From Candidatus Melainabacteria bacterium (GTDB lineage Bacteria > Cyanobacteriota > Vampirovibrionia > LMEP-6097), in NCBI GenBank assembly GCA_018695135.1, contig JABHOV010000059.1, positions 12,133 through 76,132 of the forward strand: a stretch of 64,000 nucleotides of DNA. Direction: 5' to 3'. The translations under genes were made by a program, and so were the position numbers. The first letter of the stretch is position 1. Every line of letters starts with the position of its first letter. The notes beneath the pieces were generated by a model. That model saw nothing but the letters and a program-made list of their open reading frames with translations. It made no database searches and was not told the origin of the DNA. Of the stretch, positions 4,235 to 54,280 are shown in pieces.

Positions 4235-5065
4235 ATGAAAGAACTTCACGTTAATATCGATCACGTTGCGACACTGAGACAGGCTCGTCAAACTGTTGAA
4301 CCTAGCCCACTTGAAGCGGTCAAGCTTTTGGAGATGAGTAAGGCTGCTGGTATTACTACTCACTTGCGTGAGGATAGACGTCATATTAATGATCAGGATA
4401 TTAAAGAGATTGATCAATATTTGAGATCATCTCGTTTGTCTTTGACTTTTGAGATGGGCGCCACTGAAGAGATTCGCCAAATATGTTTGACTACTGAAGC
4501 GAAGCTCGCAACGATAGTCCCTGAGAAGCGCGAGGAGTTAACAACAGAAGGTGGCTTGAACGTTTCTAACCAAAAACAGTTTTTGTCTGAGTTTATAAAA
4601 CCAATTATGGACAATGGAACCAAGATTTCTTTTTTTGTAGATCCTGTTGAAGAGCAGATTGCTTCTAGTAAAGAAATAGGAGCTGCTTTTGTTGAAATTC
4701 ATACAGGTACTTATGCCAACCTGTTTATTCAATATCATGCCGATAGAGCTAATTATTTATTAGCTCGAGATTTAATGCCACTTGCTTTCAATGATTTAGT
4801 GAAGCCAGTTCAAGATGAGCTATTGAGAATCGATGCCGCTATGAAATTTGCTCAAGAGCTTGGGCTCAAAACTAATTTGGGACATGGTTTGACGATTCCT
4901 AATTTGCCACCATTGTTAGAGAAGCTAGAGTCGATTAGAGAATTGCATATTGGGCACTCACTAATTGCCAACAGTGTTTATTTCGGTTTGATAGATATTA
5001 CAGACAAGTTTAGTCGGGTTTTGCGAAGTTCTAATTGCCCATCTCTTTTAGCATTGCATCAGTAG
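4235..5065 (+). CDS. pdxJ: Pyridoxine 5'-phosphate synthase
   Basis: NIDHVATLRQAR, HLREDRRHI, IHTG motifs. Confidence 0.9.
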   Translation: MKELHVNIDHVATLRQARQTVEPSPLEAVKLLEMSKAAGITTHLREDRRHINDQDIKEIDQYLRSSRLSLTFEMGATEEIRQICLTTEAKLATIVPEKREELTTEGGLNVSNQKQFLSEFIKPIMDNGTKISFFVDPVEEQIASSKEIGAAFVEIHTGTYANLFIQYHADRANYLLARDLMPLAFNDLVKPVQDELLRIDAAMKFAQELGLKTNLGHGLTIPNLPPLLEKLESIRELHIGHSLIANSVYFGLIDITDKFSRVLRSSNCPSLLALHQ

Positions 5066-5906
5066 CAAGATGTTCTGGATAAATACTTACTCCGCCGACA
5101 CCTAGTTCTTTGGCTACGCGCATTGAGATTTTGACCTCTTCACTATTGGTTCTATCACCATCAGTGATTAAGTGGATTCTAAGGTCGTCTCTTTTGGTTA
5201 ATTTACGAAGCCCTATAATACTGTCTTTGACGAAGTTGTAGACAGTGTCATGGTCGCGGTTCTTGAGTCCATGCCAGTAAGTCATTGGCATCAATACATC
5301 CCAGTTGGCTGCCATGTATTCCCAAGGATATTTGCTTTTGATTTCTGGAGAAAAGACTATTGCAATAGTTGGATAGTCAGCTGGGATTTGCGCTTTGATT
5401 TTTTGAGTATAACTTTTGACTGCCCAGAGTGCGGTGTTTTCTTCTATGTCAGCTGCCATACCATCAAGGCTTTCACCATCCTTGCTGACATAAAGTGCTG
5501 GTTCTACAAATTTGCGAACGTCAGTTGGAATATCTCGAAGGTAGCAGTAAGTCCAGCCTATGACTTTAATATCACGCTTGTGAGCTGCTTTGAGAATTTC
5601 ATCAACACCATCTTGTAATTTAAAAATGTCAGTTGTTGACCTATTGACTTGAAGATAAATTGTATCCATATCGAACTTGTCGAGTCTGTCCATAAATGCG
5701 TTAACGTCTTGGGGATAATTCCAAACATTGACCCAAACACCTCTGCCTTCCATCACCGCTTCTTTCAGATCATGATGTGGAGCGAGTTCTTTGAGTTGGT
5801 AGCTTTTTAAAGAAATTGGTTTTTGAATTGCTAGCGCGGGGCTTGTTAGTAGCAGCGCTAAAAGTAGGTTGAGGAGGATTGGCATTATAGATATTATACC
5901 CAGCAT
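5031..5906 (-). CDS. Secreted glycoside-hydrolase-like TIM-barrel protein (GHL10/DUF4015-like); start moved to Met of signal peptide MLGIISIMPILLNLLLALLLTSPALA
   Basis: Signal peptide plus GVWVN..IYLQV pattern; six-frame start at 5996 lies inside palindromic element. Confidence 0.45.
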   Translation of the reverse strand: MLGIISIMPILLNLLLALLLTSPALAIQKPISLKSYQLKELAPHHDLKEAVMEGRGVWVNVWNYPQDVNAFMDRLDKFDMDTIYLQVNRSTTDIFKLQDGVDEILKAAHKRDIKVIGWTYCYLRDIPTDVRKFVEPALYVSKDGESLDGMAADIEENTALWAVKSYTQKIKAQIPADYPTIAIVFSPEIKSKYPWEYMAANWDVLMPMTYWHGLKNRDHDTVYNFVKDSIIGLRKLTKRDDLRIHLITDGDRTNSEEVKISMRVAKELGVGGVSIYPEHLATDAMLKEMGN

Positions 5907-5910
5907 TTCT

Positions 5911-6032
5911 CCACCCACGTTGAGCCTTGCACTTCTTAACAGATAATTGCACTTTGATATACAGACTCCACCTTGACTTTGTCTGCGGGCATGCAATTAT
6001 CTGTTAAGAAGTGCAAGGCTCAACGTGGGTGG
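5911..6032. repeat. 122-bp perfect palindromic element, 41-bp arms with termini CCACCCACGTTGAGCCTT / AAGGCTCAACGTGGGTGG (family 4, copy A)
   Basis: Arms 5911-5951 and 5992-6032 are exact reverse complements. Confidence 0.9.
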
Positions 6033-7403
6033 CTATACCAAGCTAGTAACAAACTTAGTAATCAAGCCAAGATAAACCATAAATGTAATGATATCGATGG
6101 TGGTGGTGATTAATGGACCGCTTGCGACAGCTGGATCCATATCAAGCTTCTTGAATAAGAATGGAGTGATAGTACCAAAGGCAACGGCAAGCATCATGGA
6201 AATAATCAATGATAGCCCGATGAGAAAAGAGAGAGTTGGATTGTGGTAAGAAAAGAATGACATTAGTCCAGTAATCACCGCGCAAGTAAGTCCAATACTA
6301 AAACTAATAATCAGTTCGTGAACCAGTATCTGAGAGCTTTTACCAACTTGAATTTCACCAGTGGAAATCCCACGAACGATAATGGTAGAACTTTGGTTAC
6401 CCAAATTCCCTGATAGTCCAGAGAGTAATGGCATGAAGGATATAGCAATGGGGATTGCCATGATTGTTGCATCATAACTAGCAATTAAAGAAGCTGCCAA
6501 GTATTGACCAAGCAAGGTGATGATGATCCAGGGAGTTCTTGCTTTGTAGGCACTCGCATATTCTTTAACCAAGGATGTGACTACGTTTGAGCTGTCTTCC
6601 GTTTCAACATTAATACCACTTGATTGATAAATATCTTCAGTCGTTTCATCTTCGATAACTTCAAAGGCGTCATCAATAGTGATGATACCGACTAGCTGGT
6701 CATGATCATTGATAACGGGCACGGCAAGGAATTTATATTTGGCAAATAAATCTGCAGCAAGTTCTTGGTCATCATTAGCATGAACAGCAATGACTTCTGT
6801 GTTCATGTGCATTGCTACTGTATCCGTATCTGCAGCTAAGAATAATTCTCTTAGGCTCATGATCCCTACAAGCTCACCAAATCTTTTGGTGACAAAAATA
6901 TACATGATCTCAATATCTTCTTCGCGTGCTTTGAGTCTTACGTAACGCAGTGAAGCAGCAATTTTGAGGTCTTCACGAACACTAATGAAACTAGGTTTCA
7001 TGATACCACCACAGGTATCTGGATCATGACACAGTAGTTCTTTGATTTCAAATGGTCTTTGAATATTTTCCAAGATGCGCATCATGCGATCATCGTCAAG
7101 TAAGCTGACGATATCAGCGGCATCATCCAGTTCCATGTTGTTGGTGAATTTAGTTATTTGTTCATCGGATAAAGTTTGCATCACTTCTTCAATATCGTGA
7201 TTCTCTAGTTCAACCAGAACTTCAGCTCCCTGTTTGTAAGAAAGAATATCGAAGAGATGGGCTTTTTTGTTTTGCTCAAGATTGTGATATTCTTCTGCAA
7301 TATCTTGTGGGAAGAATTCATCTAAAACCGCGCGCAACTCTTTAAGATCGCAATCATCGATCTCGCTGAGTATATTGTTTAAATTGAGGGGGTTTTGGGG
7401 CAT
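6033..7403 (-). CDS. mgtE: Magnesium transporter MgtE
   Basis: N-terminal MgtE_N, tandem CBS and C-terminal TM MgtE domain residues (GNLGNQSSTIIVRG, PLITTTIDI). Confidence 0.9.
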   Translation of the reverse strand: MPQNPLNLNNILSEIDDCDLKELRAVLDEFFPQDIAEEYHNLEQNKKAHLFDILSYKQGAEVLVELENHDIEEVMQTLSDEQITKFTNNMELDDAADIVSLLDDDRMMRILENIQRPFEIKELLCHDPDTCGGIMKPSFISVREDLKIAASLRYVRLKAREEDIEIMYIFVTKRFGELVGIMSLRELFLAADTDTVAMHMNTEVIAVHANDDQELAADLFAKYKFLAVPVINDHDQLVGIITIDDAFEVIEDETTEDIYQSSGINVETEDSSNVVTSLVKEYASAYKARTPWIIITLLGQYLAASLIASYDATIMAIPIAISFMPLLSGLSGNLGNQSSTIIVRGISTGEIQVGKSSQILVHELIISFSIGLTCAVITGLMSFFSYHNPTLSFLIGLSLIISMMLAVAFGTITPFLFKKLDMDPAVASGPLITTTIDIITFMVYLGLITKFVTSLV

Positions 7404-9649: not shown

Positions 9650-9912
9650 CTTTGCGAATTATTATTGTTTTATTGTTGATTTTACTGGCCCAGGGCCCAG
9701 CACTTGCCTTTAACCCTGTTAAGTTAGTGTTCAAAGTTCCGTTTACTGTTGTCAAACTTGCAACGAAGGTCGCTTACAAAGTTGTTTCAGTGCCAGTTAA
9801 AGTAGCAATGACTACAGTCAAGACTGGAGTGAAAGCTACAGCTGCTGACAAGGTCGCTGTTTTTGCAATCAAGCATGCTCCTTATAAAGATCTTGCTTTT
9901 TTAGCTTTATAA
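9650..9912 (+). CDS. Small secreted Val/Lys-repeat protein (start guessed at TTG 9650 behind GGGAGG SD)
   Basis: Signal-like IIIVLLLILLAQGPALA then repetitive VK-rich segment. Confidence 0.3.
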
Positions 9913-9920
9913 TTACTTCT

Positions 9921-10808
9921 ATGCAGCTTCAGGATCTCAATTTATCAGAGCTTACGAAAGTAGCGATTCACAAAAGTGTGTCAGAAGAACTTATTTTTGA
10001 TGCCAATGTTTCTGTAGCTTTGTTTCAATTAGGCGAGCCGCCAATGACCTATTATCATCTGCATGGCGCAGAGAATTATCATCCTGCTAGTTTAATTAAA
10101 TTATTTCAAGCTTACTTGGCTAAATACAAAATCCAAAGCAATGTTGTAGATTTTGCCAGAGAAAAAATAGCCGAAACAGATTCTTTTGCATCATCTAATC
10201 ATATGGAGGATGTTTACCAGGCAATCGAGGCAAGTCTCAAAGACTCTGATAATGATGCTTTGAGTTATTTAGTGGACTACAATAGTGGTGTTTGTTCAGG
10301 TCCCCGGCTTGACGAAGAGGATTTTGCTATTTTTAAAGAAGCGCGCGGCGAGCTTAGTGAGTTTTTTCACGGACGAGGTTATAGCAAGAGCCTCAATATT
10401 CCAGGCAAGTGTTTTAGTTTTGCACCTTACGGTAGAGAGACTCAATTGAGCTTGGAGACAGGCGGGCTTGGAACTAATAGCATCAGTGTTCAAGATGTTG
10501 TACAAATTATGTACGCAATCAAAGTTGATTTCCCTGAATTATTAGAATCATTGAGGCGAGATATTGATGACACGGAAGATGAGCAAGTGCAGTTTATTGC
10601 AACTGGTTTGCGCTGCTACAGTGATCAAATTGAGGCTTACTATTCCAAGGCAGGTTGGACTTCGAGGGTTAGGCATGACGTGGCTTATATCAAGGTTAGA
10701 ACAGGCGAAGAATATATTTTGGCAATCATGACTAAGAATTTAAGTGAGTGTACTGATTTGATTCCCGAGATTGCAGAGTGGGTTATAGGATCTTTGTTTA
10801 AAGATTAA
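9921..10808 (+). CDS. Serine hydrolase, class A beta-lactamase-like
   Basis: SLIK (SxxK), SDN and KAGW(KTG-like) elements in expected order. Confidence 0.5.
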   Translation: MQLQDLNLSELTKVAIHKSVSEELIFDANVSVALFQLGEPPMTYYHLHGAENYHPASLIKLFQAYLAKYKIQSNVVDFAREKIAETDSFASSNHMEDVYQAIEASLKDSDNDALSYLVDYNSGVCSGPRLDEEDFAIFKEARGELSEFFHGRGYSKSLNIPGKCFSFAPYGRETQLSLETGGLGTNSISVQDVVQIMYAIKVDFPELLESLRRDIDDTEDEQVQFIATGLRCYSDQIEAYYSKAGWTSRVRHDVAYIKVRTGEEYILAIMTKNLSECTDLIPEIAEWVIGSLFKD

Positions 10809-11439: not shown

Positions 11440-11560
11440 AACCGGTTTTTATTAGAGATCCTGCAAAACTTTGTTTTGCTAGTGATGTCGACACAAAAAA
11501 GTTTGGAACGGTGCGAAGCGCTAGTTCCTGGAGTGAAGAGGATGGGCTTTTTTACAATAA
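11440..11560. repeat. Family 1 structured repeat, intergenic copy (core CCTGCAAAAC-TTT-GTTTTGCTAGTGATGTCGACA..GGAACGGTGCGAAGCGCTAGTTCC)
   Basis: Shares a ~70-nt core with copies at 14545-14665 and 58255-58370. Confidence 0.85.
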
Positions 11561-13769: not shown

Positions 13770-14987
13770 ATGGATAGAAATGGACAAAGATTGGACAATG
13801 TCATCAGCCTTGATCTAAAGCTACAAGGTTTGATTAGTTCTAAATTAAAAAACATTGATCAGTTTAATCTAACTTGGTCAGAATTCGAGTTGAAGGAATC
13901 ACAAGAGTTTTTGCGTGAACTTAAAGAGCTTTCTACTATTCAGAGTATTGGTTCTTCTACGAGAATTGAGGGTTCTAAATTACAAGATGATGAAATTAAA
14001 ACCTTGATCGATAATTTAGATATTAATAAGCTTAAGTCGCGTGATGAAGAGGAAGTGAGCGGCTATTATGAAGCTCTTGATTTGATCTACGAAAATCATG
14101 AGAATTTATTTTTGAGTGAATCATATATAAAGCAATTGCATGCAATTTCGCTTAAGTATAGTTCAAAGGATACTCGCCACCGAGGAGATTATAAATCATT
14201 GTCTAATAAAGTGGTTGCTCAGTATCCTGATGGAAGTTCCAGGGTCGTTTTTGATACTACTGAGCCATACCTAGTGGCAAAAGAGATGACTGATTTGATT
14301 GATTGGTCTAATGAAAGACTTTCATATTCTGGGATTCATTCCTTGATGGTGATAGCTGTTTTTGTTTATGAGTTTCTTTCTATTCACCCTTTTCAAGATG
14401 GCAATGGCCGTTTGTCTCGCTTACTGACCAACTTGTTAATGATGAAGTCAGGTTATAAGTTTGTTCAATATATTTCTTTTGAGCATGTGATTGAACAAAG
14501 AAAAAAAGAATACTATCAAAATCTAATGGAGGCTCAGTCTCAGCGGTTTACGAGACACCCTGCAAAACATGGTTTTGCTAGTGATGTCGACATAAATAAG
14601 GTCGGAACTGTGCGAAGCGCCAGTTCCGCTAATGAAGAGGCGGAGGGCTTTCATGTGAACTGTGCCGCAAGGGAAGATCTTGGCATGTGGATGGTATATT
14701 TCTTAGATTGTGTTGAAAACCTAATCTCAAAACTTAAAACTAAGTTGCACACAAATGATGATCATTGTTTAGATGATTCTGGAGTAAATTTAAGTTCAAC
14801 TCAGAAACAAATCTACACTTTGATCAGCACGAATAAGTCTAGTAAAGTTGAGGATCTGATGAAAGTTTTTCCTGAGATAACGAGACCGACTATTAAATAT
14901 AGTTTGTCGAGGCTTGTTGAGCTTGGTTTAATCAGTCGCCATGGAAGAGGGCGAGGGACTTGGTACCAGACCGCTAAAGCTTACTAA
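13770..14987 (+). CDS. Fic family protein (AMPylase/Doc-like) with N-terminal inhibitory motif STRIEG and C-terminal winged HTH; carries in-frame family-1 repeat
   Basis: HPFQDGNGRLSRLL Fic motif; (S/T)xxxE(G/N) motif near the N-terminus. Confidence 0.85.
   Translation: MDRNGQRLDNVISLDLKLQGLISSKLKNIDQFNLTWSEFELKESQEFLRELKELSTIQSIGSSTRIEGSKLQDDEIKTLIDNLDINKLKSRDEEEVSGYYEALDLIYENHENLFLSESYIKQLHAISLKYSSKDTRHRGDYKSLSNKVVAQYPDGSSRVVFDTTEPYLVAKEMTDLIDWSNERLSYSGIHSLMVIAVFVYEFLSIHPFQDGNGRLSRLLTNLLMMKSGYKFVQYISFEHVIEQRKKEYYQNLMEAQSQRFTRHPAKHGFASDVDINKVGTVRSASSANEEAEGFHVNCAAREDLGMWMVYFLDCVENLISKLKTKLHTNDDHCLDDSGVNLSSTQKQIYTLISTNKSSKVEDLMKVFPEITRPTIKYSLSRLVELGLISRHGRGRGTWYQTAKAY
14545..14665. repeat. 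Family 1 structured repeat inserted in frame in the Fic ORF (encodes ..RHPAKHGFASDVDINKVGTVRSASSANEEAEGF..)
   Basis: Nucleotide identity to copies at 11460-11528 and 58266-58345. Confidence 0.85.
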
Positions 14988-16284: not shown

Positions 16285-16307
16285 TGTGCTGTTTTAATTA
16301 TACCCAT

Positions 16308-16397
16308 TGGGGTCGTATCCTGACATTGGACATTTCTACGGGTTAGGTATTATCACCTTGTTATTAGTTCAAAATGTCCAATGTCAGGATACGACCC
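16308..16397. repeat. Family 2 palindromic element: 26-bp arms GGGTCGTATCCTGACATTGGACATTT / reverse complement around a ~36-nt unique loop
   Basis: Exact inverted repeat; same arms at 47237-47325 and 54184-54276. Confidence 0.9.
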
Positions 16398-16451
16398 TGA
16401 TGGGTCATATGGACTATCTAGATATCCCAGTTAAAGCCGATTAACTATTAT

Positions 16452-20127: not shown

Positions 20128-20130
20128 AAA

Positions 20131-20171
20131 GTCCCATCTGCTGTGTTACATCTTTTCGTCGTATTACGGGG
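20131..20171. repeat. Family 6 short repeat (reverse orientation of CCCCGTAATACGAYGAAAAGAYGTAACRCAGCAG)
   Basis: ~36/41 identity with 29619-29659. Confidence 0.7.
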
Positions 20172-20186
20172 TATTAAACAAGGATC

Positions 20187-21404
20187 TTAATGCGTGCGCG
20201 TTGATGCTTTACTTAAAAACGCAGCCAATCTTTCCATCGCAATTTTGAGTTTATCCATTGGTTGCACTAAAGCAATACGCACATAGTCTTCACCAAACTT
20301 GCCAAAAGTAAGTCCTGGTACTAAAGAGACTCCTGTCTCGGCAAGCAAGTCTGCGGCAAAATCAAATGATGTCTTGTTTTGATCTATATATGATTTTGGA
20401 ATTGGCATCCAGAAATACATAGCTCCACCTGGTTTGGTGACTTTGATTCCCATGTCACAAAGAGCTTGGTAAACAAAGTCACGGCGGTTTTGGTATTCAA
20501 GTCTCACTTCTTCGCGGTACTCGTCACCTAGGTCAATAGCTGCTATTCCGGCTTCTTGAATTCCCATGCAAACACCATAATCGATATTGGTTTTGAGTTT
20601 ATAAAGAGTGCTAATGATATCAGTGTTGCCAACGGCATAGCCTAAGCGCATTCCAGCCATATTGTAGACCTTAGAGAAGGTGTGAAACTCAATTGCAATA
20701 TCTGAGGCGCCGCGAATTTCAAGAATTGAATGAGGTTTATTCTCATCAAACCAAATATCAGCGTAAGCTAAATCATTAATAAGTAGTATGTTGTAGTCTT
20801 TGCAAAGTGCAACTGCTTTTTCTAAGTAGGCTTTGTCAACTACTGATCCTGTCGGGTTATTTGGGTGACTCAAGATCATCATTCGCGCACGTAATAAAAT
20901 ATCTTCAGGGATTGTATCAAGATCAGCAACAAAATTGTTTTCTGGCTTAAGTTCTAGTTCATGCACATGCCCGCCGGCAAGCACGGTCCCGCGCATATGC
21001 ACTGGGTAATACGGTGACGGAATAATAGTCAACAAACCTTCTTGCATATATGCAAAAGCAATGTGGGCGATACCTTCTTTGGAACCATTGAGTGGTAGGA
21101 TGCCAGTTTCTGGATCTATATCAACTCCAAATCTTTTTTTGAAATGATCAGCGCATTTTTGTTTAAATGCCGGCAGTCCGCTAAAGATTGGATATTTTTG
21201 ATTGCGTGGTTTTGCCATACCGTCTGTCAGTGCTTGCAAAACTCTAGGATCAGTTTCTCTATCTGGCGAACCTAGCGAGAGATCGATAATTTCTTTGCCC
21301 TCTGCAAGTAGTTTTTCTTTAGTTGCGTCCAATTGCCCAAAGGCATATGAAGGCATTTCGACAAGTCTAAGGGAGGGCAGGATTTTGTTGTAAGGGGATT
21401 TCAT
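20187..21404 (-). CDS. Class I PLP aminotransferase (aspartate / LL-diaminopimelate aminotransferase family)
   Basis: IDLSLGSPD, NNPTG, SKVYNMAGMRLGY (Lys) motifs. Confidence 0.8.
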   Translation of the reverse strand: MKSPYNKILPSLRLVEMPSYAFGQLDATKEKLLAEGKEIIDLSLGSPDRETDPRVLQALTDGMAKPRNQKYPIFSGLPAFKQKCADHFKKRFGVDIDPETGILPLNGSKEGIAHIAFAYMQEGLLTIIPSPYYPVHMRGTVLAGGHVHELELKPENNFVADLDTIPEDILLRARMMILSHPNNPTGSVVDKAYLEKAVALCKDYNILLINDLAYADIWFDENKPHSILEIRGASDIAIEFHTFSKVYNMAGMRLGYAVGNTDIISTLYKLKTNIDYGVCMGIQEAGIAAIDLGDEYREEVRLEYQNRRDFVYQALCDMGIKVTKPGGAMYFWMPIPKSYIDQNKTSFDFAADLLAETGVSLVPGLTFGKFGEDYVRIALVQPMDKLKIAMERLAAFLSKASTRTH

Positions 21405-21430
21405 TATGGGGAAAAGTATAGCGTAAATGA

Positions 21431-22636
21431 TTAGTTGTCAAGCAAAAAATCTCTGATATTTTTTCTTCCGATACCCTCATAGTCAGCTTCAAATAGTTCA
21501 TCCATTGAAACTACATATTTTGGATAGTTGTCTTGGATTTCTAAAAGAGGCTTAAATTCTCTCTCAATTGTTTTCTTTGATTCTAGTAAATAACAGACTT
21601 GAATATAGAGTTTTTTGCCGCCTGACTCTGCCATAAAGTCTATTTCTAGATTATTTAATTTACCAACGTAGACTTTGTAGCCGCGTCTTTTGAGTTCTAA
21701 ATACACAATGTTTTCTAATAAGCCAGCGATATCTCCTTCTTTGTAGCCAAGCAGGGCATGTTTAAGACCATGATCGTTACAAAAATACTTGTCGTTTATT
21801 TCAAATATTTTTTTGCCTTTGATATCGTAGATTCTTGCTTTGTCAAAAATATAAGCTGAGCAAAGATAGTAGAGATAGTTTTGGATTGTGTCATTGCCAG
21901 CACTAATTTTTTTCTCTTTCAAAAAATCAGCGATATTTTTGGCTGATAAATTTGAACCAAGGTGCTTGAATGCATAAATGGCAATATTTTCAAGCAGTGC
22001 AACATTTCTAATTTCATATTTTTTGACTACATCCTTAAGTACAATTGTATTAAAAACTGATTGAATATAGTTAAAACTATTCTCGTCTTGTAGCTCTAAT
22101 AGATGAATTCCCGGTAGTCCGCCATAGCGTAAGAAGTTGAGAAATTCTTGTTTTTGATCTTGTTTTTGATCTTTACGAAAGTCAAGAAATTCTTTGAATG
22201 ACAACGGATAAATTGGAAACTCGATATAACGACCACTTAGGTAACTTGATAATTCAGAAGAGAGCAGGTCAGAATTGGACCCAGTAATATAGATGTCGAT
22301 TTTTTCTGTGTTATAGAAGGAACGGATAGCTTTTTCCCAGCCCTCTATTTCTTGAATTTCATCTATAAACAAGAAAGTCTTTTTCTTTTTATCAATCTCG
22401 GTTTTGATATATTGATTTAAGTCTTTATAATTTTGAATCAGCTCAAAGTCAAGAGATTCTTTGTCTATGTAGATGATTTGTGATTTTGTGAATTTAGATT
22501 TGATTAGTTCTATTACTTGCCTGAGAAAGTAACTCTTGCCAGTTCTTCTCATGCCAGTTATGACCTTGATAATTTGTGGTTTATCAAGGTAGTCCTGAAT
22601 TTTATCGATATATTGACAGCGTGCTATATTTGACAT
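21431..22636 (-). CDS. AAA+ ATP-binding protein with DUF4143-type C-terminus (COG1373 family)
   Basis: Walker A GMRRTGKSY, Walker B FIDEIQ; conspicuously AT-rich. Confidence 0.75.
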   Translation of the reverse strand: MSNIARCQYIDKIQDYLDKPQIIKVITGMRRTGKSYFLRQVIELIKSKFTKSQIIYIDKESLDFELIQNYKDLNQYIKTEIDKKKKTFLFIDEIQEIEGWEKAIRSFYNTEKIDIYITGSNSDLLSSELSSYLSGRYIEFPIYPLSFKEFLDFRKDQKQDQKQEFLNFLRYGGLPGIHLLELQDENSFNYIQSVFNTIVLKDVVKKYEIRNVALLENIAIYAFKHLGSNLSAKNIADFLKEKKISAGNDTIQNYLYYLCSAYIFDKARIYDIKGKKIFEINDKYFCNDHGLKHALLGYKEGDIAGLLENIVYLELKRRGYKVYVGKLNNLEIDFMAESGGKKLYIQVCYLLESKKTIEREFKPLLEIQDNYPKYVVSMDELFEADYEGIGRKNIRDFLLDN

Positions 22637-22980
22637 GATTATGATATACCATAATGATAACATAAAATAACGATGTGGTTATGGTATGGAATGATACTTG
22701 AATGTGGTATTTCGACAAGTCGACGGGAGTGTTATGACTCTTTACTTAATCCACACGTTTTGCAGAAGACCCATTTGATTAAACACAGAGCCCCAAGAAG
22801 AGCTTTTTAAAAAAAGGGCTTTTGTTTGTTGTAAGATAATTAGCGCATGGCTGTCCCTCCTGTAAATATAAGAGACTCTTTAACGATGATGGGTCGTACT
22901 CTCAACATAGTTGATTCTGATGATTTGATGGAAAACCCGTCAAAGTCAGATCTGCAAGATTATGCTAAACAGCAAGTCCA

Positions 22981-24834
22981 TTGAATCAAGCTGAGACTTT
23001 TACTGATGATGAGAGTGTTAAGGATTTAGCTGCTAGGTTTGTTGATTTTGTAGCGAACGTAGTTTATATGAACACGGGAGATTATGATCAAAGTATCGAC
23101 TTGGATCTAGAGGGAAGAGAATTTAGTTATACAGCAGGACAAACGCCTAGTTATCATCTCACTACAGGAGCGCATGCCCAGGAAGATGGTATTGAGGAGA
23201 TGACGATTGTCACTGACAAGCAAGATCTTGATGCAAATATCAAATCTATAAGTTATAAGCCGCTTGGAGCTACCGATTCTAAGTCTATTAAATTAGATGA
23301 ACCTTATTCTATTCCCGCTTCAATGCTCAGGCTGATTTATCCGGCGAACCAAGATGGTGTCAAAAGACGGGGCAACACGCGTTATGAAAAGGCTCATCGA
23401 TTATTAGAATTAAAGCAACAGCTTCCAGCTTTGGCAAAAGTGATTCCACCAATGTTTCTTGTTCCTAATGAAATATATCCACCGGATGATTTTATTAATT
23501 ATGGTATAGACCGCTTGAAAGAGCAATTGCCTGAGTATTTCCCTAATGCTGATGGTCACAAGTTAATAGTAAGAAGTTGTCACAAAAAAGAAGGTAGTGC
23601 TAAAGTCCCGCTTTCAGGTGTTTTTGAATCTATTCCAAATGTAGAGATGAATCTTGAAGCTATTAAGCAAGCACAAGAGACTATTCAAGACAAGGATTAT
23701 GCACTGCAAGAATTTAATTCACGACAGAAAAGCCATGCTGACCCAGTATACGCTGATGTTGGACATCTGATTATGCCTCAGGTTCGGGTGAAATACTTTA
23801 TGACTGTTGAACCGGTGGTTTATGCTGAACATCAACTAGCAGGTTCTATGAGGCGTGATGTTGATGCTTATTCAAAAACTCCTTTCCCAAAAACAGAAAT
23901 TGGTGGACGCAAGCTTGAATATGAAGTGAAGATATATGGTTCTCAAAATGGTGAACCTCACAAATTACTTAAAAGAAACACTTTGGCTGGTTTGACTACT
24001 GAGAGCTTAGAGGGATCAGGCGTGAATATAAGTCAAGAACAAATTGCTGATATGAAGAGAGTACATCAACAAGTATCAGATTTTTATTCTGATGAATATC
24101 AAGAAATGGAATTTGTTGTTGGTGAAGAGGCTTATGGCAATGACGAGAATCATAATTTGCACCTTGTACAAACACGTGACCAAGGGGCTTGGGAGAAGCC
24201 AGATGAAGACGAGACGGTGAAGCTGTATAAAAAAACTACGGTAGATTCAGGGGAACCGGAAGGCTTATTCACCTTGGTTGATGACCCTGATCAAGATTTG
24301 CCTTTACTGGTAATTGATGAAAGGCAATTGTTGGCTGATGGAGAGAGTATAGATGTTATGCCTCTTGAGGATATGCAAAAACGAGTAGAAAACGCTGCAG
24401 CGCTAATGAAAGATCGAATACAAAATGAACTTGGTTTTGGTCCATTTATTTTAGCAGTGCAGGATTTATCTCTTACTGCCAAAATAAATAACCCTAAAGA
24501 GGTTATTGATAATCAAGTAATTAGTAATATCGGATCTTGGTTAGATGTGATTAATACAGCAAGTCTAGTAATAGAAAATCGAAATGGTTCTCTTGCTAAT
24601 GCAACATCTTTTCATTCAGCACGCCCACGGAAGGGCTATAGTAAAGCTATGATCAAGTTGTTCTTTCCAATGTCTCATCTTGATGAAACAATAATGGATA
24701 GATTTACAGGACAATATATAAAGATTTTGGATAAAGAGGTCCTTAGTCTAAGAAGTTTCGTTAATACTTATAACAAGATTATGGATGGTTGTCGTAGCCC
24801 TGAGGGTTTTAAAGTTAGAGAAAGGGTTAGGTAA
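22981..24834 (+). CDS. Hypothetical protein 617 aa (TTG start)
   Basis: Long ORF; no motif recognised. Confidence 0.45.
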   Translation: MNQAETFTDDESVKDLAARFVDFVANVVYMNTGDYDQSIDLDLEGREFSYTAGQTPSYHLTTGAHAQEDGIEEMTIVTDKQDLDANIKSISYKPLGATDSKSIKLDEPYSIPASMLRLIYPANQDGVKRRGNTRYEKAHRLLELKQQLPALAKVIPPMFLVPNEIYPPDDFINYGIDRLKEQLPEYFPNADGHKLIVRSCHKKEGSAKVPLSGVFESIPNVEMNLEAIKQAQETIQDKDYALQEFNSRQKSHADPVYADVGHLIMPQVRVKYFMTVEPVVYAEHQLAGSMRRDVDAYSKTPFPKTEIGGRKLEYEVKIYGSQNGEPHKLLKRNTLAGLTTESLEGSGVNISQEQIADMKRVHQQVSDFYSDEYQEMEFVVGEEAYGNDENHNLHLVQTRDQGAWEKPDEDETVKLYKKTTVDSGEPEGLFTLVDDPDQDLPLLVIDERQLLADGESIDVMPLEDMQKRVENAAALMKDRIQNELGFGPFILAVQDLSLTAKINNPKEVIDNQVISNIGSWLDVINTASLVIENRNGSLANATSFHSARPRKGYSKAMIKLFFPMSHLDETIMDRFTGQYIKILDKEVLSLRSFVNTYNKIMDGCRSPEGFKVRERVR

Positions 24835-24835
24835 C

Positions 24836-26791
24836 TTACCTAAAAACAAACCAAGCAAGCATTAAACCAACAGCACTAACCATAATCAAAACGTAGTTTT
24901 GTAATTTACCAGATTGTTGAGTTTTAAGTACTTCACCAACAACTTCAGTTCCTCTCCAAGCGAGTCCATTAACTAAGGCCCCTTCAATAAAGAAGCGTTC
25001 GAATATTTTGAAAGTGATTCTAAAGAAGCCCATCAAGATTGAGACAAAGAAGTTGTAGATCTCATCGATGTACCACTTGTTAAGTGAGCCTTGATAAATA
25101 ATTGAGAAGTTAGTTTTGAACCATTCGTTGATTGTTTTATCACCGATTTTAGTTTGTGCCATATAAGTAAGGTAAGCGGCGATAGTACCAAAAATAAACA
25201 TCAAGAACGGCAGGTAACCCATAGGTTGACTAAGTTCGTGAAGGAAGAATTCCCAACCACTTTGACCATGTGCCATATGAGAATGGAAATGAGCATCGAA
25301 GTAATGCTGTAGTTTGTAACCCATCAATGGTGAACCTAAAAGCCCAAGTCCAATTGAAGGGATAGCTAAAACCATTAGTGGTCCTGTTACGCAAAGAGGT
25401 TGTTCGTGTGGGTGAGCGTGACCTCGGTACTGACCTTCAAATGTTTTGAAGTAAATCCTAAACATATAAAATGCAGTCATGCCAGCAGTGATAGTTGCAA
25501 TCCAAAAAAGAGCGGGACTTACTTCAAAGGCTTTTGCAATGATCATGTCTTTAGACCAGAAACCTGACATCATCGGGAAGCCAGCAATAGAAAGGGTTCC
25601 AATCAAAAATGTAATAGCAGTATAAGGCATATCTTTGCGCAAGCCGCCCATTTCGCTCATGTTTTGTTCGTGATGGCAGCCCATGATTACAGAACCAGAA
25701 CCTAAAAATAGCATCGCTTTGAACATCGCATGGGTAATCAAATGAAACATTGCAATGATTGGTGCGCCTAGACCAACAGCTAGCACCATGTAACCGAGTT
25801 GCGAGCAAGTTGAGTAAGCTAGAGCTTTTTTGATATCGTTTTGCGAGAAAGCAATTGTCGCTGCAAAGATCGCAGTAATCCCACCAATCCAAGCAATTAC
25901 TGGAAGCGCTTCTGAGCCGGTGATTCCAAGTATCGGGAAGATACGTGCCAGTAAGTAAACACCAGCAGCAACCATTGTTGCAGCGTGGATTAGAGCAGAA
26001 ATAGGAGTAGGTCCTTCCATGGCATCAGGTAACCAAATATGAAGCGGGAACTGGGCTGACTTTGCAGCAGCTCCCATAAAAATAAGTAAGCCAATTGCGG
26101 TAACTGAAACTATGCCAGTAAGAGCAAGCTCGTTGTGAGCAATTGCCCATTGAGTAGCACCTGCTAGTTTGCCGAAACTAAGAGTTGCGATGTCTTGATT
26201 ACTAGTCCAGAAATCCTTAGTGAAGTTGTAGAGCATTAATAAGCCAAGCAAAAAGCCAGCATCACCGACTCTGTTAACGACAAATGCTTTCTTACAAGCG
26301 TGCGCTGCGGCAGGTTTGTGCCACCAGAAACCAATTAAGAGGAATGAACAAACACCAACTAACTCCCAGAAAAAATACATCTGAAATAAGTTAGTCGCGA
26401 TTACTAAACCGAGCATCGAGAAGGTAAATAATGATAGGTAAGAATAAAATCTAGTGTATCCTTCATCCTCAGCCATATAACCATGAGTGTAGATTTGCAC
26501 CAGTAAACTAACCAAGTTGACAGTAAGCAGCATGCCAATTGCCAGTGGATCGATTAGACAACCAATTTCCAGGTGAAAATCTCCAGCACTAATCCAATTG
26601 AGGTTGATTTCATAAGGATGGTGCCCGTGGAAATTAAGAAAGATAACGAAGGAGTGGATTAAACCAAGTGCAACAGCACCGACTGAAAGTCCCATTGAAA
26701 CGATACGGCTTTTATGCGTAAAAAACATAATTAGCACAGCGGCGACAAGGGGATATATAGCTATTAACCAAGCATTATCAATATTATTCAT
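24836..26791 (-). CDS. nuoL: NADH-quinone oxidoreductase subunit L / NdhF-type proton-pumping subunit, stand-alone
   Basis: ~16 TM helices; conserved antiporter-like residues and long C-terminal extension of NuoL/NdhF. Confidence 0.85.
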   Translation of the reverse strand: MNNIDNAWLIAIYPLVAAVLIMFFTHKSRIVSMGLSVGAVALGLIHSFVIFLNFHGHHPYEINLNWISAGDFHLEIGCLIDPLAIGMLLTVNLVSLLVQIYTHGYMAEDEGYTRFYSYLSLFTFSMLGLVIATNLFQMYFFWELVGVCSFLLIGFWWHKPAAAHACKKAFVVNRVGDAGFLLGLLMLYNFTKDFWTSNQDIATLSFGKLAGATQWAIAHNELALTGIVSVTAIGLLIFMGAAAKSAQFPLHIWLPDAMEGPTPISALIHAATMVAAGVYLLARIFPILGITGSEALPVIAWIGGITAIFAATIAFSQNDIKKALAYSTCSQLGYMVLAVGLGAPIIAMFHLITHAMFKAMLFLGSGSVIMGCHHEQNMSEMGGLRKDMPYTAITFLIGTLSIAGFPMMSGFWSKDMIIAKAFEVSPALFWIATITAGMTAFYMFRIYFKTFEGQYRGHAHPHEQPLCVTGPLMVLAIPSIGLGLLGSPLMGYKLQHYFDAHFHSHMAHGQSGWEFFLHELSQPMGYLPFLMFIFGTIAAYLTYMAQTKIGDKTINEWFKTNFSIIYQGSLNKWYIDEIYNFFVSILMGFFRITFKIFERFFIEGALVNGLAWRGTEVVGEVLKTQQSGKLQNYVLIMVSAVGLMLAWFVFR

Positions 26792-26870
26792 ACAGGGTTT
26801 ATTCTATACTGAAAATACAAATTTGGCGAAGGAAGGGCAGATGAACTTGTATTGATTGATTGGGCTGAGC

Positions 26871-27125
26871 TTAACGAGTAATCTTAATCAAAATCTCATT
26901 AGCTTCAATTACTTTAATTTCTTCTTTAATAGTACGTTTCATACCAAGAAATGAATGAAATTCTTTGATTTTATTATTGAGTTTTTGATTGTCTTGAAGA
27001 AGTTCTTGGCGTTTGCTTCTTAGTTCTATGTTTTTTTTTATATTGTGGCTAAGGTCCATTAAATTAACGACAAAGCTCTTAGAAAATGGTAGTAATAGCA
27101 AAATCGCTAAAATAAACCAAAACAT
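26871..27125 (-). CDS. FtsB/DivIC-like septum formation initiator (start moved to MFWFILAILLL)
   Basis: Single TM then coiled coil, ..LGMKRTIKEEI.. tail resembling FtsB. Confidence 0.5.
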   Translation of the reverse strand: MFWFILAILLLLPFSKSFVVNLMDLSHNIKKNIELRSKRQELLQDNQKLNNKIKEFHSFLGMKRTIKEEIKVIEANEILIKITR

Positions 27126-27300
27126 AGTCTTGGATCGGTTGTGAGAGAGGCTTGCTTGATTGCTTTTGTTTGGCTGCGTTAGTTCGAGGCTTGGGATAGC
27201 CTGGGTTTGAAAATCGATATTATGTGGGTAATTAAATTGCACCATAGCAAAATTAGCTACAAAGGCAGCCATTAAGAAAAGAGACGTCAAATATCCTTAA

Positions 27301-28146
27301 TTGATCCGAGGGACTATACTTAATAGTACTTTGTTTAGGTATTTTGGGTTGATTTTGTTTTTGAGTTTGGCATCTGTCCAGGCTAAGCCATATTTGCCTG
27401 CTGATACTGAAGTGCTGGCACAAATCAATTCTTCTAAGAAGCTCAAGAAACTTAATGCAAGTTTGAAACAGGATCCAAACAATATTGATTTGGCTTATTT
27501 GCTTGCAAAGCAATATATTGCATTAGGCAAGGCCCAGGGGGACCCTCGTTACTATAGTTACGCTACGGCGAGCTTGGCTCCTTGGGCTAAGCAGAAAAAA
27601 AGTCCTCCGAGTATTAAATTATTGCTTGCTGATATAAAACAATATCAACACCGATTTAATGAAGCTTTGGAATTATTGGATGCGATTTTATTAGCGGAGT
27701 CAAATTATCAAGAAGCAATTTTGATGCGTGCTGCAATTTATACTGAGCTTGGTAAGTATTCGCGTTCTGATGATGACTGCCGCCAGCTTAAAGACCGTAG
27801 TCTTGAAACAACTTGTTTGGCTTTGAATAAGTTCCACAATGGCTATCCAGCAGAGGCTTATGATGATCTGCGGGACTTGAGTTTTGGTGATGATCAAGCT
27901 AGTCTTTGGTCACTTACTATCCTAGCTGAAATCACGGCACGCTTGGCAAAAACTGTAGAGGCTGAACGATATTATCAACAAGCACTTGCGATTAATAATA
28001 GTGATATTTATTTGCTTGGATCCTATGCTGATTTTCTTTTGGATCAAGCAGAGAATCAAGCGGTGATTGATTTACTGGAAGGGATGGAAGAGGTAGAGAG
28101 TTTGGCTTTGCGTTATAGGATGGCTCAAGGGGTGAATCATGATTAG
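27301..28146 (+). CDS. Secreted TPR-repeat protein
   Basis: Signal peptide; several 34-residue A/Y/L-patterned repeats. Confidence 0.65.
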   Translation: MIRGTILNSTLFRYFGLILFLSLASVQAKPYLPADTEVLAQINSSKKLKKLNASLKQDPNNIDLAYLLAKQYIALGKAQGDPRYYSYATASLAPWAKQKKSPPSIKLLLADIKQYQHRFNEALELLDAILLAESNYQEAILMRAAIYTELGKYSRSDDDCRQLKDRSLETTCLALNKFHNGYPAEAYDDLRDLSFGDDQASLWSLTILAEITARLAKTVEAERYYQQALAINNSDIYLLGSYADFLLDQAENQAVIDLLEGMEEVESLALRYRMAQGVNHD

Positions 28147-29374
28147 TTTAGTACTGGACTTCCTGCGCAAGTTTCGTTTTGCAGGATGTCTGCTGTTCTT
28201 GGTTTTGTTTGTGCTACCGGCGCAAGCACATAAGCCAAGCGAAAGTTTTTTGAAAATCCAAGCTGCTAGTCAAGCAATAACTATTGAGTGGGATGTTGCA
28301 ATTAGAGATTTGGATTATTTGATTGATTTGGATCTGAATAATGATTCTGAGATTAGTGGATTTGAATTTAAAAATCAAGAACAGAAGATCAGAGACTATT
28401 TGTTTTCACAAATTAAACTAGAGGCTTTTTCGAAGCCTGAATCAGTAGCTGCTCATCATCATGCGCATAGTCATGTTCATTCGTCTTCAGCTCATCACCA
28501 CGCGACTGGCTTGAAGAAATGGATAGGAGCTTATTGTAAGAGATCAGAGCAAGTTGACTTGTTGGTAGAAAAACATAGTGAGCTTAGTTATGTTGTTTTA
28601 TTGTTTGATTATCAATGTAGGCTTGAGCTTGATAAATTAAGCGTCGATTATAATTTACTGTTTGATGCTGACCCCGAACATAGGGCTTTAGTGAGTTTGG
28701 ATTATGACGGCAAGGTTCAAAGCTATGCCTTGACCAAAGATCAGCGGTATTTTAAAGCGAAGCTAGGCAATGTTGATTATAAATATCAGTTCTTGAATTT
28801 CTTAGATCAGGGGAAATGGCATATTTGGACTGGTTATGATCATATATTGTTTTTGCTTGCACTTTTATTGCCAGCTGTATTCGTTACAGGTAAAGGGAAG
28901 AAGAGAGAAGTAACTTTGAAATCAGTTTTTTGGACTGTTGTAAAAATAGTTACAGCATTTACAGTTGCACATTCCATTACTCTGTCTCTGGCAGCTTTAG
29001 AGATTGTTGAAGTTAATTCTCGCTTGGTTGAAATTTTAATTGCTTTGTCTGTTGCCTTCAGCGCTTTATTGAATTTAGTCCCTCGATCCCTTTTCTCTCT
29101 TCCCGTTACCCTTCTCCCTTTTTGTTTTGGTTTAATTCATGGCTTCGGTTTTGCTGGAGCTTTGCAAGATATTGGCTTGCCCTTGAAGGCTTTATTAGTT
29201 TCTTTGTTTAGCTTTAATCTTGGAGTGGAGCTTGGGCAGCTTGCAATTGTCGCTTGCTTTGTACCCATTGCCTATTGGCTTAGAGACACCTGGTTCTATC
29301 AGGTTATTGTTTTTAGGCTTGGTTCGCTTGCTATATTTGTGATGGCGATGTGGTGGTTTTTTGAGCGGTTATAG
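28139..29374 (+). CDS. HupE/UreJ-family membrane protein with periplasmic His-rich segment (AAHHHAHSHVHSSSAHHHATG)
   Basis: C-terminal TM region with HGFGFAG motif; signal peptide; overlaps upstream TPR gene. Confidence 0.6.
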   Translation: MISLVLDFLRKFRFAGCLLFLVLFVLPAQAHKPSESFLKIQAASQAITIEWDVAIRDLDYLIDLDLNNDSEISGFEFKNQEQKIRDYLFSQIKLEAFSKPESVAAHHHAHSHVHSSSAHHHATGLKKWIGAYCKRSEQVDLLVEKHSELSYVVLLFDYQCRLELDKLSVDYNLLFDADPEHRALVSLDYDGKVQSYALTKDQRYFKAKLGNVDYKYQFLNFLDQGKWHIWTGYDHILFLLALLLPAVFVTGKGKKREVTLKSVFWTVVKIVTAFTVAHSITLSLAALEIVEVNSRLVEILIALSVAFSALLNLVPRSLFSLPVTLLPFCFGLIHGFGFAGALQDIGLPLKALLVSLFSFNLGVELGQLAIVACFVPIAYWLRDTWFYQVIVFRLGSLAIFVMAMWWFFERL

Positions 29375-29524
29375 GTAAGAAAAAGCTTTAATGAATGTTA
29401 TTGGGGCTTTAATTTTAAGTTGGTTTGTAAGTTTCAGAAGATCCCTGGAAATTACGATGTAATTTCTCAGTGATGTATCGGGGGACACAGGTTTTCATTG
29501 AATCTAGAGTTGGCTGCTACCCCT

Positions 29525-29575
29525 GAAAGGCTTGCGAGTTTTTATGAACCGGAGTTGACTGGAGCCGGAATTGTT
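29525..29575. repeat. Family 5 repeat, reverse orientation (..CCGGAGTTGACTGGAGCCGG..)
   Basis: Matches 34393-34420 and 58024-58046 core ATTGACGGCTCAGTCAACTC. Confidence 0.6.
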
Positions 29576-29618
29576 CAGGGTTGTTGAATACGCATAGTTT
29601 AGACAAGCCGAACTGATA

Positions 29619-29659
29619 CCCCGTAATACGATGAAAAGACGTAACGCAGCAGCTGGGGC
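29619..29659. repeat. Family 6 short repeat CCCCGTAATACGATGAAAAGACGTAACGCAGCAGCTGGGGC
   Basis: Near-identical to reverse complement of 20131-20171. Confidence 0.7.
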
Positions 29660-29672
29660 TTTGCAAGCAGAT

Positions 29673-31162: not shown

Positions 31163-31352
31163 CCACCCACGTTGAGCCTTCAGATAAGATCCCACCCGCT
31201 GCGTGACATACGCCACTTTTAAGATAAATCGTCTACACAATGGTATTTCTCTGTTGAGTCAGTTTTAGATATCATTTATCTTAAAAGTGGCGTATGTCAC
31301 GCAGCGGGTGGGATCTTATCTCAAAAAGTGGTAAAGGTTGAGACGTGGGTGG
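31163..31352. repeat. Family 4 palindromic element, copy B (~190 bp): termini CCACCCACGTTGAGCCTT / AAGGTTGAGACGTGGGTGG, 49-bp inner inverted repeat
   Basis: Read in sequence; shares 18-bp termini with 5911-6032. Confidence 0.85.
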
Positions 31353-31373
31353 CTAGTGCTATTATTTATTGCT

Positions 31374-47236: not shown

Positions 47237-47325
47237 GGGTCGTATCCTGTCATCTGACATTTCAATGTATTACAAACGATCTTAATTAGTGATACACTGA
47301 AATGTCAGATGACAGGATACGACCC
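47237..47325. repeat. Family 2 palindromic element, variant arms GGGTCGTATCCTGTCATCTGACATTT with three compensatory changes in the partner arm
   Basis: Both arms read in sequence. Confidence 0.9.
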
Positions 47326-47871
47326 TGTTTGGCGCAGGAAATCTTCATGTGCATTTTTATTGGTGTAGTTGGTAACGCGCAAATAAGCTGACCAAGGTAT
47401 TTGATTTTCGCTTGCAACTTTGGCTATACCGTAGAGCTCCATGTTTTCTATAATTGCGTCTGTTTGATAATGTTTAATAATTTGTTTGGAGATAGTCTCG
47501 TCTTGAGTGATTTCAAGACTTGAGAGGCATAAAATATTCTTTGAATCTGGATGACTGGCGTGAAGAATAGGATAAATATCTTTGATAGTGTAGCTAAGTC
47601 CTTGAACTGATCCGAGATTTAAAAGAGCTGCAGCACTAACTATGATTTGCTCGCCAATCTTGATATTTTGGCTATAGGCACCGGCTGTGCCAGTAAAGAT
47701 GATTTCGGAGATATCGTTTCTTGATTGAAGTAGTTTAGAGAGATTGACAGCTGCTTCAAGATAGCCAATGCCAAGTACCTCTAAAATATGGGTTTTACTG
47801 GTTAAATAGGGCAAATCCGCTGGATTCTCTGCTAGTTCGTTTTTGCAGGCTGCGCAAATAAGGCTTGTCAT
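47305..47871 (-). CDS. PNP/MTAN-family nucleosidase, possible futalosine hydrolase MqnB
   Basis: Short 188-aa MTAN-like layout (..IIFTGTAGAY..). Confidence 0.55.
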   Translation of the reverse strand: MTSLICAACKNELAENPADLPYLTSKTHILEVLGIGYLEAAVNLSKLLQSRNDISEIIFTGTAGAYSQNIKIGEQIIVSAAALLNLGSVQGLSYTIKDIYPILHASHPDSKNILCLSSLEITQDETISKQIIKHYQTDAIIENMELYGIAKVASENQIPWSAYLRVTNYTNKNAHEDFLRQTGSYPVI

Positions 47872-48047: not shown

Positions 48048-48371
48048 ATGGAAGTTTCTCAAGTAAGCAAGATGCTCGCATACAGTTTTGTATCAGAGTT
48101 GATTAATAAAAAGAAAGTCAAGAGCAATGGTCGTCTTGTTGCTTCTGATGAGGTAAGTGAAGAAGCGTTTGATATTTCCGAGATGAGTTTTGGTGATCTT
48201 GAAACATATTACAAAAATGTTCTAACTATCATTGAAGATACTCCTGAAATACGAAGTTCCTTAGTTGATTCAATTAAGCGTGCTCAAGAAGATGGTGAGG
48301 ATCTAAACCTACGTTATCCAGCTAAATTAATTGCACAGGAAGAATCTTTGCAAAAACAGTTATTTATGTGA
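48048..48371 (+). CDS. Hypothetical protein 107 aa
   Basis: ORF only. Confidence 0.35.
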   Translation: MEVSQVSKMLAYSFVSELINKKKVKSNGRLVASDEVSEEAFDISEMSFGDLETYYKNVLTIIEDTPEIRSSLVDSIKRAQEDGEDLNLRYPAKLIAQEESLQKQLFM

Positions 48372-48372
48372 G

Positions 48373-48405
48373 TATTTCTGAAGCTGTAAGCTTCAGAAAT
48401 ACTCA
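48373..48405. terminator. Perfect 15-bp-stem hairpin AGTATTTCTGAAGCT-GTA-AGCTTCAGAAATACT directly after stop codon
   Basis: Read in sequence; no U-run. Confidence 0.45.
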
Positions 48406-54160: not shown

Positions 54161-54183
54161 AGTGAAAAAGATTGTATCACATA

Positions 54184-54276
54184 GGGTCGTATCCTGACAT
54201 TGGACATTTGCTACACTATATATTATCCGCTGGGCAAAGTTATTTAACTAAAATGTCCAATGTCAGGATACGACCC
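54184..54276. repeat. Family 2 palindromic element, third copy
   Basis: Same 26-bp arms as 16308-16397. Confidence 0.9.
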
Positions 54277-54280
54277 TACT

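Follow-up and report, generated by a model that had tools for sequence, protein, structure and literature searches.

REPIN-like repeats have mostly been studied in Proteobacteria, and Correia/NEMIS, ERIC, RUP and Nezha are examples of bacterial MITEs. Bacterial MITEs have been reviewed (PMC3184786). REPINs are doublets with inverted ends that form hairpins around a less conserved spacer, and they occur alongside singlets and clusters (PMC3116915). Di Nocera and coworkers (2013, PMC3733652) described non-REP TIR families with units of a few tens of nucleotides, whose single, dimeric or grouped copies are associated with genes for tyrosine transposases (TIRYTs). The element considered here occupies positions 5911-6032 of a window of 64,000 nucleotides (the whole stretch of DNA that was analysed) from a Candidatus Melainabacteria bacterium. 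It is one copy of a small repeat family that is scattered in the intergenic DNA of an uncultured Melainabacteria species, and the family is a new one of a known bacterial repeat kind in a little-studied phylum. The element is probably a REPIN- or MITE-like non-autonomous repeat, that is, an inverted doublet of a 36-nt non-coding unit (unit A) belonging to a lineage-specific intergenic family. As repeat DNA it is in all likelihood selfish or neutral, and not a dedicated switch for mgtE, the magnesium-transporter gene behind which it lies.

The element consists of a perfect 41-bp inverted repeat and a 40-nt spacer. An inverted-repeat search found the left arm (5911-5951, 41 nt) and the right arm (5992-6032, 41 nt) to be fully complementary (41/41, 100%) across a gap of 40 nt. 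The outer 36 nt of the left arm (5911-5946) are a copy of unit A, CCACCCACGTTGAGCCTTGCACTTCTTAACAGATAA, which is recognized in this arm by nhmmer at E = 3.4e-9, and the outer 36 nt of the right arm (6032-5997, minus strand) are a second copy in inverted orientation. Both outer ends of the element are formed by the 18-mer CCACCCACGTTGAGCCTT, in agreement with the original prediction of 41-bp arms with 18-bp termini. The description of the whole as a 122-bp perfect palindrome holds for the arms but not for the centre (5952-5991), which is non-palindromic and contains only a mini-stem of 5-6 bp; the 122 nt are 80% identical to their own reverse complement. The hairpin is well outside chance expectation, with a predicted DNA folding energy of -53.4 kcal/mol for the 122 nt (z = -16.9) and an RNA folding energy of -96.5 kcal/mol for the mgtE strand with flanks (z = -12.7). 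A third copy of the 18-mer lies at 31163, and the three copies observed in the window compare with none expected from dinucleotide shuffles. The element is flanked by TTTCT and CTATA, and the sole open reading frame that overlaps it arises when the next gene is extended mechanically in the upstream direction. A second copy of the 40-nt centre is missing from the approximately 360 kb of sequence compared, which thus gives no evidence for transposition of the element as a whole.

Unit A has the form CCACCCACGTTGAGCCTT-(G/T)CACTTYTT..-(C/G)AGATAA or, as a pattern, CCACCCACGTTGAGCCTT.CACTTYT....AGATAA. The 18-mer continues in the same way in every family copy (nhmmer E from 1e-9 to 6e-6), and the predicted family sharing the 18-bp termini is borne out by further loci with an identical continuation. 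Five separate loci of low GC content carry unit A; the window contains two of them, and metagenome contigs (L015, L017 and L019) provide the other three. The copy number of about 2 per 64 kb is known from these five loci alone. Two of the loci carry singlets, one between the stop of a glycosyltransferase gene and the start of a malic-enzyme gene (L015) and the other 80 nt upstream of rplI (L019). The element at 5911-6032, between mgtE and a gene encoding 284 aa, is a simple doublet. The remaining two are compound palindromes of the form A+B...B'+A', in which there is also a related unit B, CCACCCGCTGCGTGACATACGCCACTTTTAAGATAA (as a pattern, CCCACCCGCTGCGTGA...AGATAA); unit B has the same length as unit A, shares with it the frame CCACCC...CACTTTT..AGATAA and sits inside unit A in both. 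One of these compounds is on L017 (flanks GCGTC and CGAAA). The other spans 191 bp of the window (31163-31353; flanks CACAG and CTAGT) in the divergent promoter region between a DUF4331 gene (minus strand) and ffh (plus strand). Its order is the 18-mer followed by AGATAAG, unit B (31192-31227), a loop of 44 nt, unit B' (31311-31276) and unit A' (31352-31316), in which the GTTGAG hexamer is inverted.

The arms of the family copies are near-identical while the intervening sequence varies from locus to locus. The compounds at 31163 and on L017 have arms that are identical at 47 of 47 positions and loops (44 and 62 nt) that are unrelated. The inner ends of the arms are variable, giving arm lengths of 41, 51 and 53 nt. 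The units taken singly fold like shuffled sequences (-0.1 to -3.5 kcal/mol, z from +0.65 to -1.7), so they are not self-complementary. The four nucleotides outside eight ends (TTCT, ATAG, ACAG, CTAG, CGTC, TTCG, ACTG and TCAG) contain no conserved tag, and the flanks of the copies at 5911-6032, at 31163 and on L017 share no direct repeat of at least 2 nt that would mark a target-site duplication. A longer element spanning the left flanks of the 5911 and L017 copies was considered and rejected, as the likeness of these flanks comes down to a GGGTATA-type box and an ATGCC start at both genes.

Several searches defined the distribution of the family. A metagenome scan with the 18-mer returned 10 contigs, namely one with the present locus (L021), the three other family loci (GC 0.38-0.40; the window has a GC content of 40%) and six unrelated contigs. 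These six do not belong to the family, since their sequence stops matching past the 18-mer, and the four of them that were measured have a GC content of 0.44-0.72. The original prediction was to be refuted if the 18-mer were unique to the two window loci and without conservation in relatives; the first part does not apply, since the 18-mer has copies elsewhere, but the second does, since relatives do not conserve it. The nhmmer profile detected no further copies of unit A in the window and approximately 300 kb of related loci, and no new copies appear in the approximately 4 kb before the window or the few kb past its end. A scan of 185,579 species-representative genomes (596 Gb) with the 18-mer gave two one-off matches, both from unrelated bacteria (a Yoonia and a Bacteroidetes MAG), where approximately 17 chance matches are expected by our own estimate, and no match from this organism or its relatives. 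No similar DNA was found among plasmids, phages and viral contigs. Rfam has no match in the window at gathering thresholds; three microRNA-hairpin matches obtained in E-value mode are attributable to chance (17-21 bits against thresholds of 53-88). No transposase or RAYT domain was detected in the 28 open reading frames scanned (part of those in the window), nor any transposase domain in the precomputed Pfam annotations of neighbouring loci.

The genes on either side of the element are both on the minus strand. The mgtE gene (6033-7403) encodes a protein with MgtE_N, CBS and MgtE domains, and its TAG stop codon (6035-6033) directly adjoins the end of the element at 6032. The 284-aa gene downstream (5031-5885) encodes a hydrophobic N-terminus that, as read from the translation, is predicted to be signal-peptide-like. 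It had been labelled GH-like, a designation for which Pfam offers nothing but matches below threshold (GHL10, E = 0.063; GHL6, E = 0.14). Gene callers start this gene at an ATG at 5906, which gives a protein of 291 aa. The ATG at 5906 is not conserved, as relatives with approximately 90% identity have either an ATG three bases downstream (L008) or ACG (L027-L030), and the ATG at 5885-5883 is common to all relatives. The true start is therefore most likely 5885 and not 5906. Accordingly, the placement of the element between an mgtE stop at 6033 and a start at 5906 is right on the mgtE side, where the stop adjoins 6032, but probably not on the other.

A -10-like box, GGGTATAAT (5893-5901, minus strand), lies 7 nt upstream of the ATG at 5885. 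The element ends 12 nt from this box (TATAAT) and 25 nt from the ATG. The box is also present in the sister species; in the relatives with approximately 90% identity, GGGTATAAT-N7 precedes the equivalent ATG, and in more distant relatives GGGCATAAT or GGAATATAAT does. The 284-aa gene may thus have a leaderless or short-leader start at this box. The same box occurs 7 and 12 nt upstream of the ATG in two genes of the window (5883-5901 and 16285-16305, both minus strand). The sister species has an identical box at both sites, and at the first site farther relatives have related ones as well. This suggests that the GGGTATAAT boxes are -10 boxes of leaderless or very short-leader mRNAs in this lineage.

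The MgtE homologues and cluster members come from MAGs named Candidatus Melainabacteria, Cyanobacteriota or Caenarcaniphalales, and the exact MgtE protein is encoded on contigs of several metagenomes. An unaltered copy of the element is found on eight contigs from the same species, whose MgtE is 99.6-100% identical, and its centre has the same orientation wherever it is assembled. An invertible switch is rejected on account of this single orientation in all assemblies; 40 bp is, to our knowledge, too short for inversion by a recombinase. One contig (L025) ends within the element and another (L026) has an N-gap there, which is typical of the trouble that repeats and hairpins cause in assembly. 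An assembly artefact in the form of a fold-back chimera can nevertheless be dismissed as extremely improbable: assemblers can make palindromes and these two contigs break at the element, but the sequence, together with both unique flanks, was assembled independently from several samples and by several pipelines (ENA, JGI, Logan).

The gene order cdsA, mgtE, 284-aa gene and pdxJ is kept in relatives, and the element is absent from the junction. The spacer to the conserved ATG is 57 nt long in relatives whose MgtE is approximately 90% identical (L008, L027-L030), 35 nt at 83% identity (L009 and L010) and 22 nt at 73% identity (L011 and L012). Just after the mgtE stop of the sister species, CTTCATAAAGATAA matches the inner part of unit A at 14 of 15 nt (p approximately 0.03-0.04, uncorrected) and is a weak hint, at the level of sequence, of a possible remnant of the element. 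At the site equivalent to 31163, the sister has a 113-nt spacer that is homologous to the loop and the inner approximately 20 nt of the right arm (score 47, compared with a maximum of 31 in 1000 shuffles) and that is without the left arm and the outer modules. In total, the sister (proteins approximately 90% identical) has no repeats at three shared sites and decayed or different forms at three others, and 43 kb of its DNA contains no long inverted repeats, compared with three in the window region syntenic to it. At another place, the relative with 73% identity has a doublet that resembles unit B, CCCAGCCGCTGCGTGA, with 15 of 16 positions identical. From these comparisons, the superfamily is of long standing in the clade and perfect doublets are a trait of this species, with absence or decay in the sister.

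Other repeats are present in and near the window. A separate palindromic family with arms GGGTCGTATCCTGACATTGGACATTT has copies at 16302-16405, 47236-47326 and 54182-54278. The first copy adjoins another GGGTATAAT box upstream of a CNNM gene. The sister has a 12/13-nt piece of one arm only at the 16302 site, and a different sequence with no copy of the family at the 47236 site. A motif of approximately 90 nt is found in three direct copies that are 83-86% identical (11448-11541, 14547-14640 and 58259-58339). It contains two small hairpins, GCAAAAC....GTTTTGC and GGAAC..GCGAAGCGC..GTTCC, has no Rfam match and lies in frame, with two of its copies, inside a Fic gene (13770-14987) and an acetyltransferase gene (58110-58682), resembling in this respect the in-frame palindromic elements of Rickettsia. 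The stretch it encodes in Fic, RHPAKHGFASDV..., is missing from the Fic protein of the sister. A palindromic doublet tagged with CGTC, CGTCATTGCGAGCGTTAGCGAAGCAATC... (51136-51234), is likewise in frame, within a gene with Fer4 and CCG domains (50052-51344), and has a solo copy at 52040-52070; the orthologue in the sister has shorter, related insertions at the same two places of the protein.

A hairpin at 48369-48405 that is followed by CGCGTCGTAGCG-AGTGAAGACGG is single in the window and forms approximately three tandem repeats in the sister (L039, approximately 9810-9990). A pair of 47-nt inverted repeats (20128-20174 and 29616-29662, 89% identical) is separated by 9.5 kb, and each copy is just downstream of a gene end, that of an aminotransferase gene and that of a DUF4331 gene. 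On the aminotransferase side, the bracketed segment (20128-29662) carries AAA_14/DUF4143 and PPDK_N-like genes that are absent from the syntenic stretch of the sister. The pair could mark the boundary of an insertion or inversion. Just past the end of the window, a segment of approximately 74 nt, CAATTGAGTTACAGGCCCTAAAAAGGGAGGG..., adjoins a putative tRNA gene (recognized by eye) and is present in two copies in two assemblies and three in a third (L031 1400-1650, L032 and L033), a copy-number polymorphism within the species.

As a REPIN- or MITE-like repeat, the element would owe its spread to factors other than itself. An enzyme acting in trans, with its gene at another place in the genome, may spread or maintain the copies of unit A; the leading candidate would be an HUH/Y1 RAYT-like transposase acting on the single-stranded hairpin. 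Gene conversion may provide an additional or alternative route. In this species, this family and the other palindromic ones are abundant, and at the corresponding sites of the sister they are missing or decayed. The sister site equivalent to 31163, with its homologue of the loop and its decayed partial arm, fits a long residence followed by decay and would also fit the building of palindromes in place.

The building of the palindrome in place, whereby a single 36-nt unit beside native sequence, as the mobile or ancestral entity, would be copied in inverted orientation across local DNA by intrastrand template switching or fold-back repair to give perfect arms with a locus-specific loop between them, is rather unlikely but accounts for several features of the family. 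Each locus has its own loop although different loci have identical arms, the arms stop at variable points on their inner side (41, 51 and 53 nt), singlets exist, and the fully matched arms at 5911-6032 (41/41) suggest a recent event. The sister spacer at 31163 is homologous to the loop and the inner right arm and has no left arm, and CTTCATAAAGATAA behind the sister's mgtE stop is weakly similar to inner unit A (p approximately 0.03). However, the similarity behind the mgtE stop loses significance once multiple comparisons are taken into account, and the 40-nt centre has no homologue in the spacer of the sister. The 16302 site of the sister, with one piece of an arm and no loop, is more simply explained as a deletion from an ancestral doublet. 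Moreover, three families are perfect here and all are decayed or absent in the sister, as expected upon loss of a maintaining enzyme. In a related proposal, which we consider unlikely, the repeated entity is the 36-nt non-palindromic unit, and perfect palindromes are generated or regenerated around locus-native DNA by fold-back copying or by conversion between dispersed units, so that every locus would have a loop of its own between identical arms. The sister, whose equivalent sites show nothing more than decayed single arms, would have lost this process. If true, such regeneration in place would be a way of forming REPIN-like hairpins that is distinct from transposition of a whole doublet.

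Whichever way the arms arose, the position of the repeat may have consequences for its neighbours. Transcripts reading through mgtE would carry a perfect 41-bp RNA stem from the first base past the stop codon, and this stem could pause the polymerase, block 3' exonucleases or undergo cleavage by RNase III. Selection for a function of the hairpin in the RNA of the mgtE operon is quite unlikely; the candidate functions are stabilisation of the 3' end, processing by RNase III and inefficient termination that would uncouple the next gene from mgtE. Its start exactly past the mgtE stop on the transcribed strand, the perfection of its 41-bp stem and its identity across all contigs of the species favour such a role, and for some transcribed REPs roles of this type are given in the literature (PMC3733652). 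However, the stem is not followed by a U-run, relatives with an identical operon layout do without the element, and the next gene is equipped with a conserved TATAAT box of its own. Other copies are situated in divergent promoter regions or in front of genes and could not act there as 3' elements. The element had been judged too long and too perfect for a simple intrinsic terminator, and this assessment is sound: a scan of 5500-6500 on both strands gave no terminator-like sites, and neither strand has a T-run behind the stem (the mgtE-strand sequence past the stem is AGAAATGC). The suggestion that it acts as a dedicated terminator, attenuator or operator is not supported by the comparison with relatives, as those with 90%, 83% and 73% MgtE identity share the gene order without the element. 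Nor is the family tied to mgtE or the next gene, since its other copies are near the DUF4331-ffh pair, rplI and the glycosyltransferase-malic-enzyme pair.

The element has replaced, it would seem, the ancestral spacer immediately upstream of the conserved TATAAT box, including any -35 region. A function of the unit as a protein-binding or promoter module upstream of genes (an operator, an activator site or a substitute for the -35 region) is very improbable. At four gene starts (5911, L017, L015 and the left side of 31163), a TATAAT- or TATATA-like box follows the CCACCC end of the unit at a distance of 12-14 nt, and a promoter scan gave a hybrid TGGAGA-18-TATAAT across the junction and TTGAGC-16-GATAAT within each arm. 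These informative cases are few, though, and in compact intergenic DNA the end of a palindrome can hardly avoid facing a gene start. The terminal sequence is unlike a -35 hexamer, the promoter-like match in the arm points into the loop, one end of the element at 5911-6032 adjoins a stop codon, and relatives keep the downstream box without having the element.

Two further classes of element were considered and rejected. The attC sites of integrons have cores of the form 5'-RYYYAAC ... GTTRRRY-3' at the foot of an imperfect hairpin with extrahelical bases and are associated with an integrase and gene cassettes. The degenerate cores are matched by GTTGAGC and GCTCAAC, but on both strands these two follow each other in the reverse 5'-3' order. 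The arms are perfect and without bulges, the neighbours are housekeeping genes in a conserved order, and the locus has no other integron-like trait. Transposons of the Tn3 family, and the miniature elements derived from them, have ends with inverted repeats of approximately 38 bp that start with GGGG and end with TAAG, and they generate 5-bp target duplications. The unit is of similar length (36-38 nt) and some copies end in ATAAG, but the outer end is CCACCC, the last bases of the copy at 5911-6032 are ATAAT, and a 5-bp duplication is lacking.

A REPIN- or MITE-like non-autonomous repeat therefore remains the preferred reading. The element is missing at the same spot in close relatives, which makes it likely to be selfish or neutral, and this absence together with the unrelated contexts of the other copies argues against a selected regulatory role. 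Any effects at the mgtE locus would be by-products. The hairpin after mgtE is a recent, lineage-specific passenger, and a tempting but unsupported story of mgtE regulation is thereby removed. The species carries several families of palindromic repeats, some of them in frame inside genes. Together with its sister it constitutes a natural system for the expansion, persistence and decay of REPIN-like repeats outside Proteobacteria, and the pair of genomes allows a test of whether hairpins move whole or are rebuilt in place. In practical terms, the repeats break short-read assemblies, with contigs that end or gap inside the element at 5911-6032, and they mislead the calling of start codons at the neighbouring gene.

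The element resembles several known systems to different degrees. With intrinsic terminators it shares a stem-loop right behind a stop codon, but its stem is 41 bp long compared with the usual 5-12 bp, its loop is 40 nt and there is no U-run. Like the TIR families, it is made of inverted-repeat units that are single, dimeric or grouped and moderately abundant; unlike many TIRs, it does not contain the GGGGWSAS motif (PMC3733652), and its end is CCACCCACG / CGTGGGTGG. It differs from MITEs in that there is no target-site duplication, the ends but not the body are common to the copies, and a parental insertion sequence whose ends match did not come to light; plasmids, phages and viral contigs contain no similar DNA. 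It is like MITEs in its size within approximately 100-200 bp (122 bp in total), its non-coding nature, its terminal inverted repeats (here perfect and 41 nt long) and its intergenic location; MITEs are often co-transcribed and fold into long RNA hairpins able to affect mRNA processing, and the element would be comparable to them in this respect. A classical REP is a small, GC-rich, imperfect palindrome of 20-40 nt with an unpaired tag (GTAG or CGTC) at one end, and the repeats flank the gene of a cognate RAYT (HUH/Y1 transposase). Unit A departs from this in two defining features, since its 36 nt do not form such a palindrome and have no conserved tag, neither GTAG nor CGTC. In contrast to the less conserved spacers of REPINs, the spacers here are wholly unrelated between loci, and only five loci are known. 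Nevertheless, like REPs and REPINs, the element is a short extragenic repeat with conserved inverted ends around a spacer and a predicted hairpin, without target-site duplication, and belongs to a family in which singlets, doublets and clusters coexist and whose abundance is specific to the lineage.
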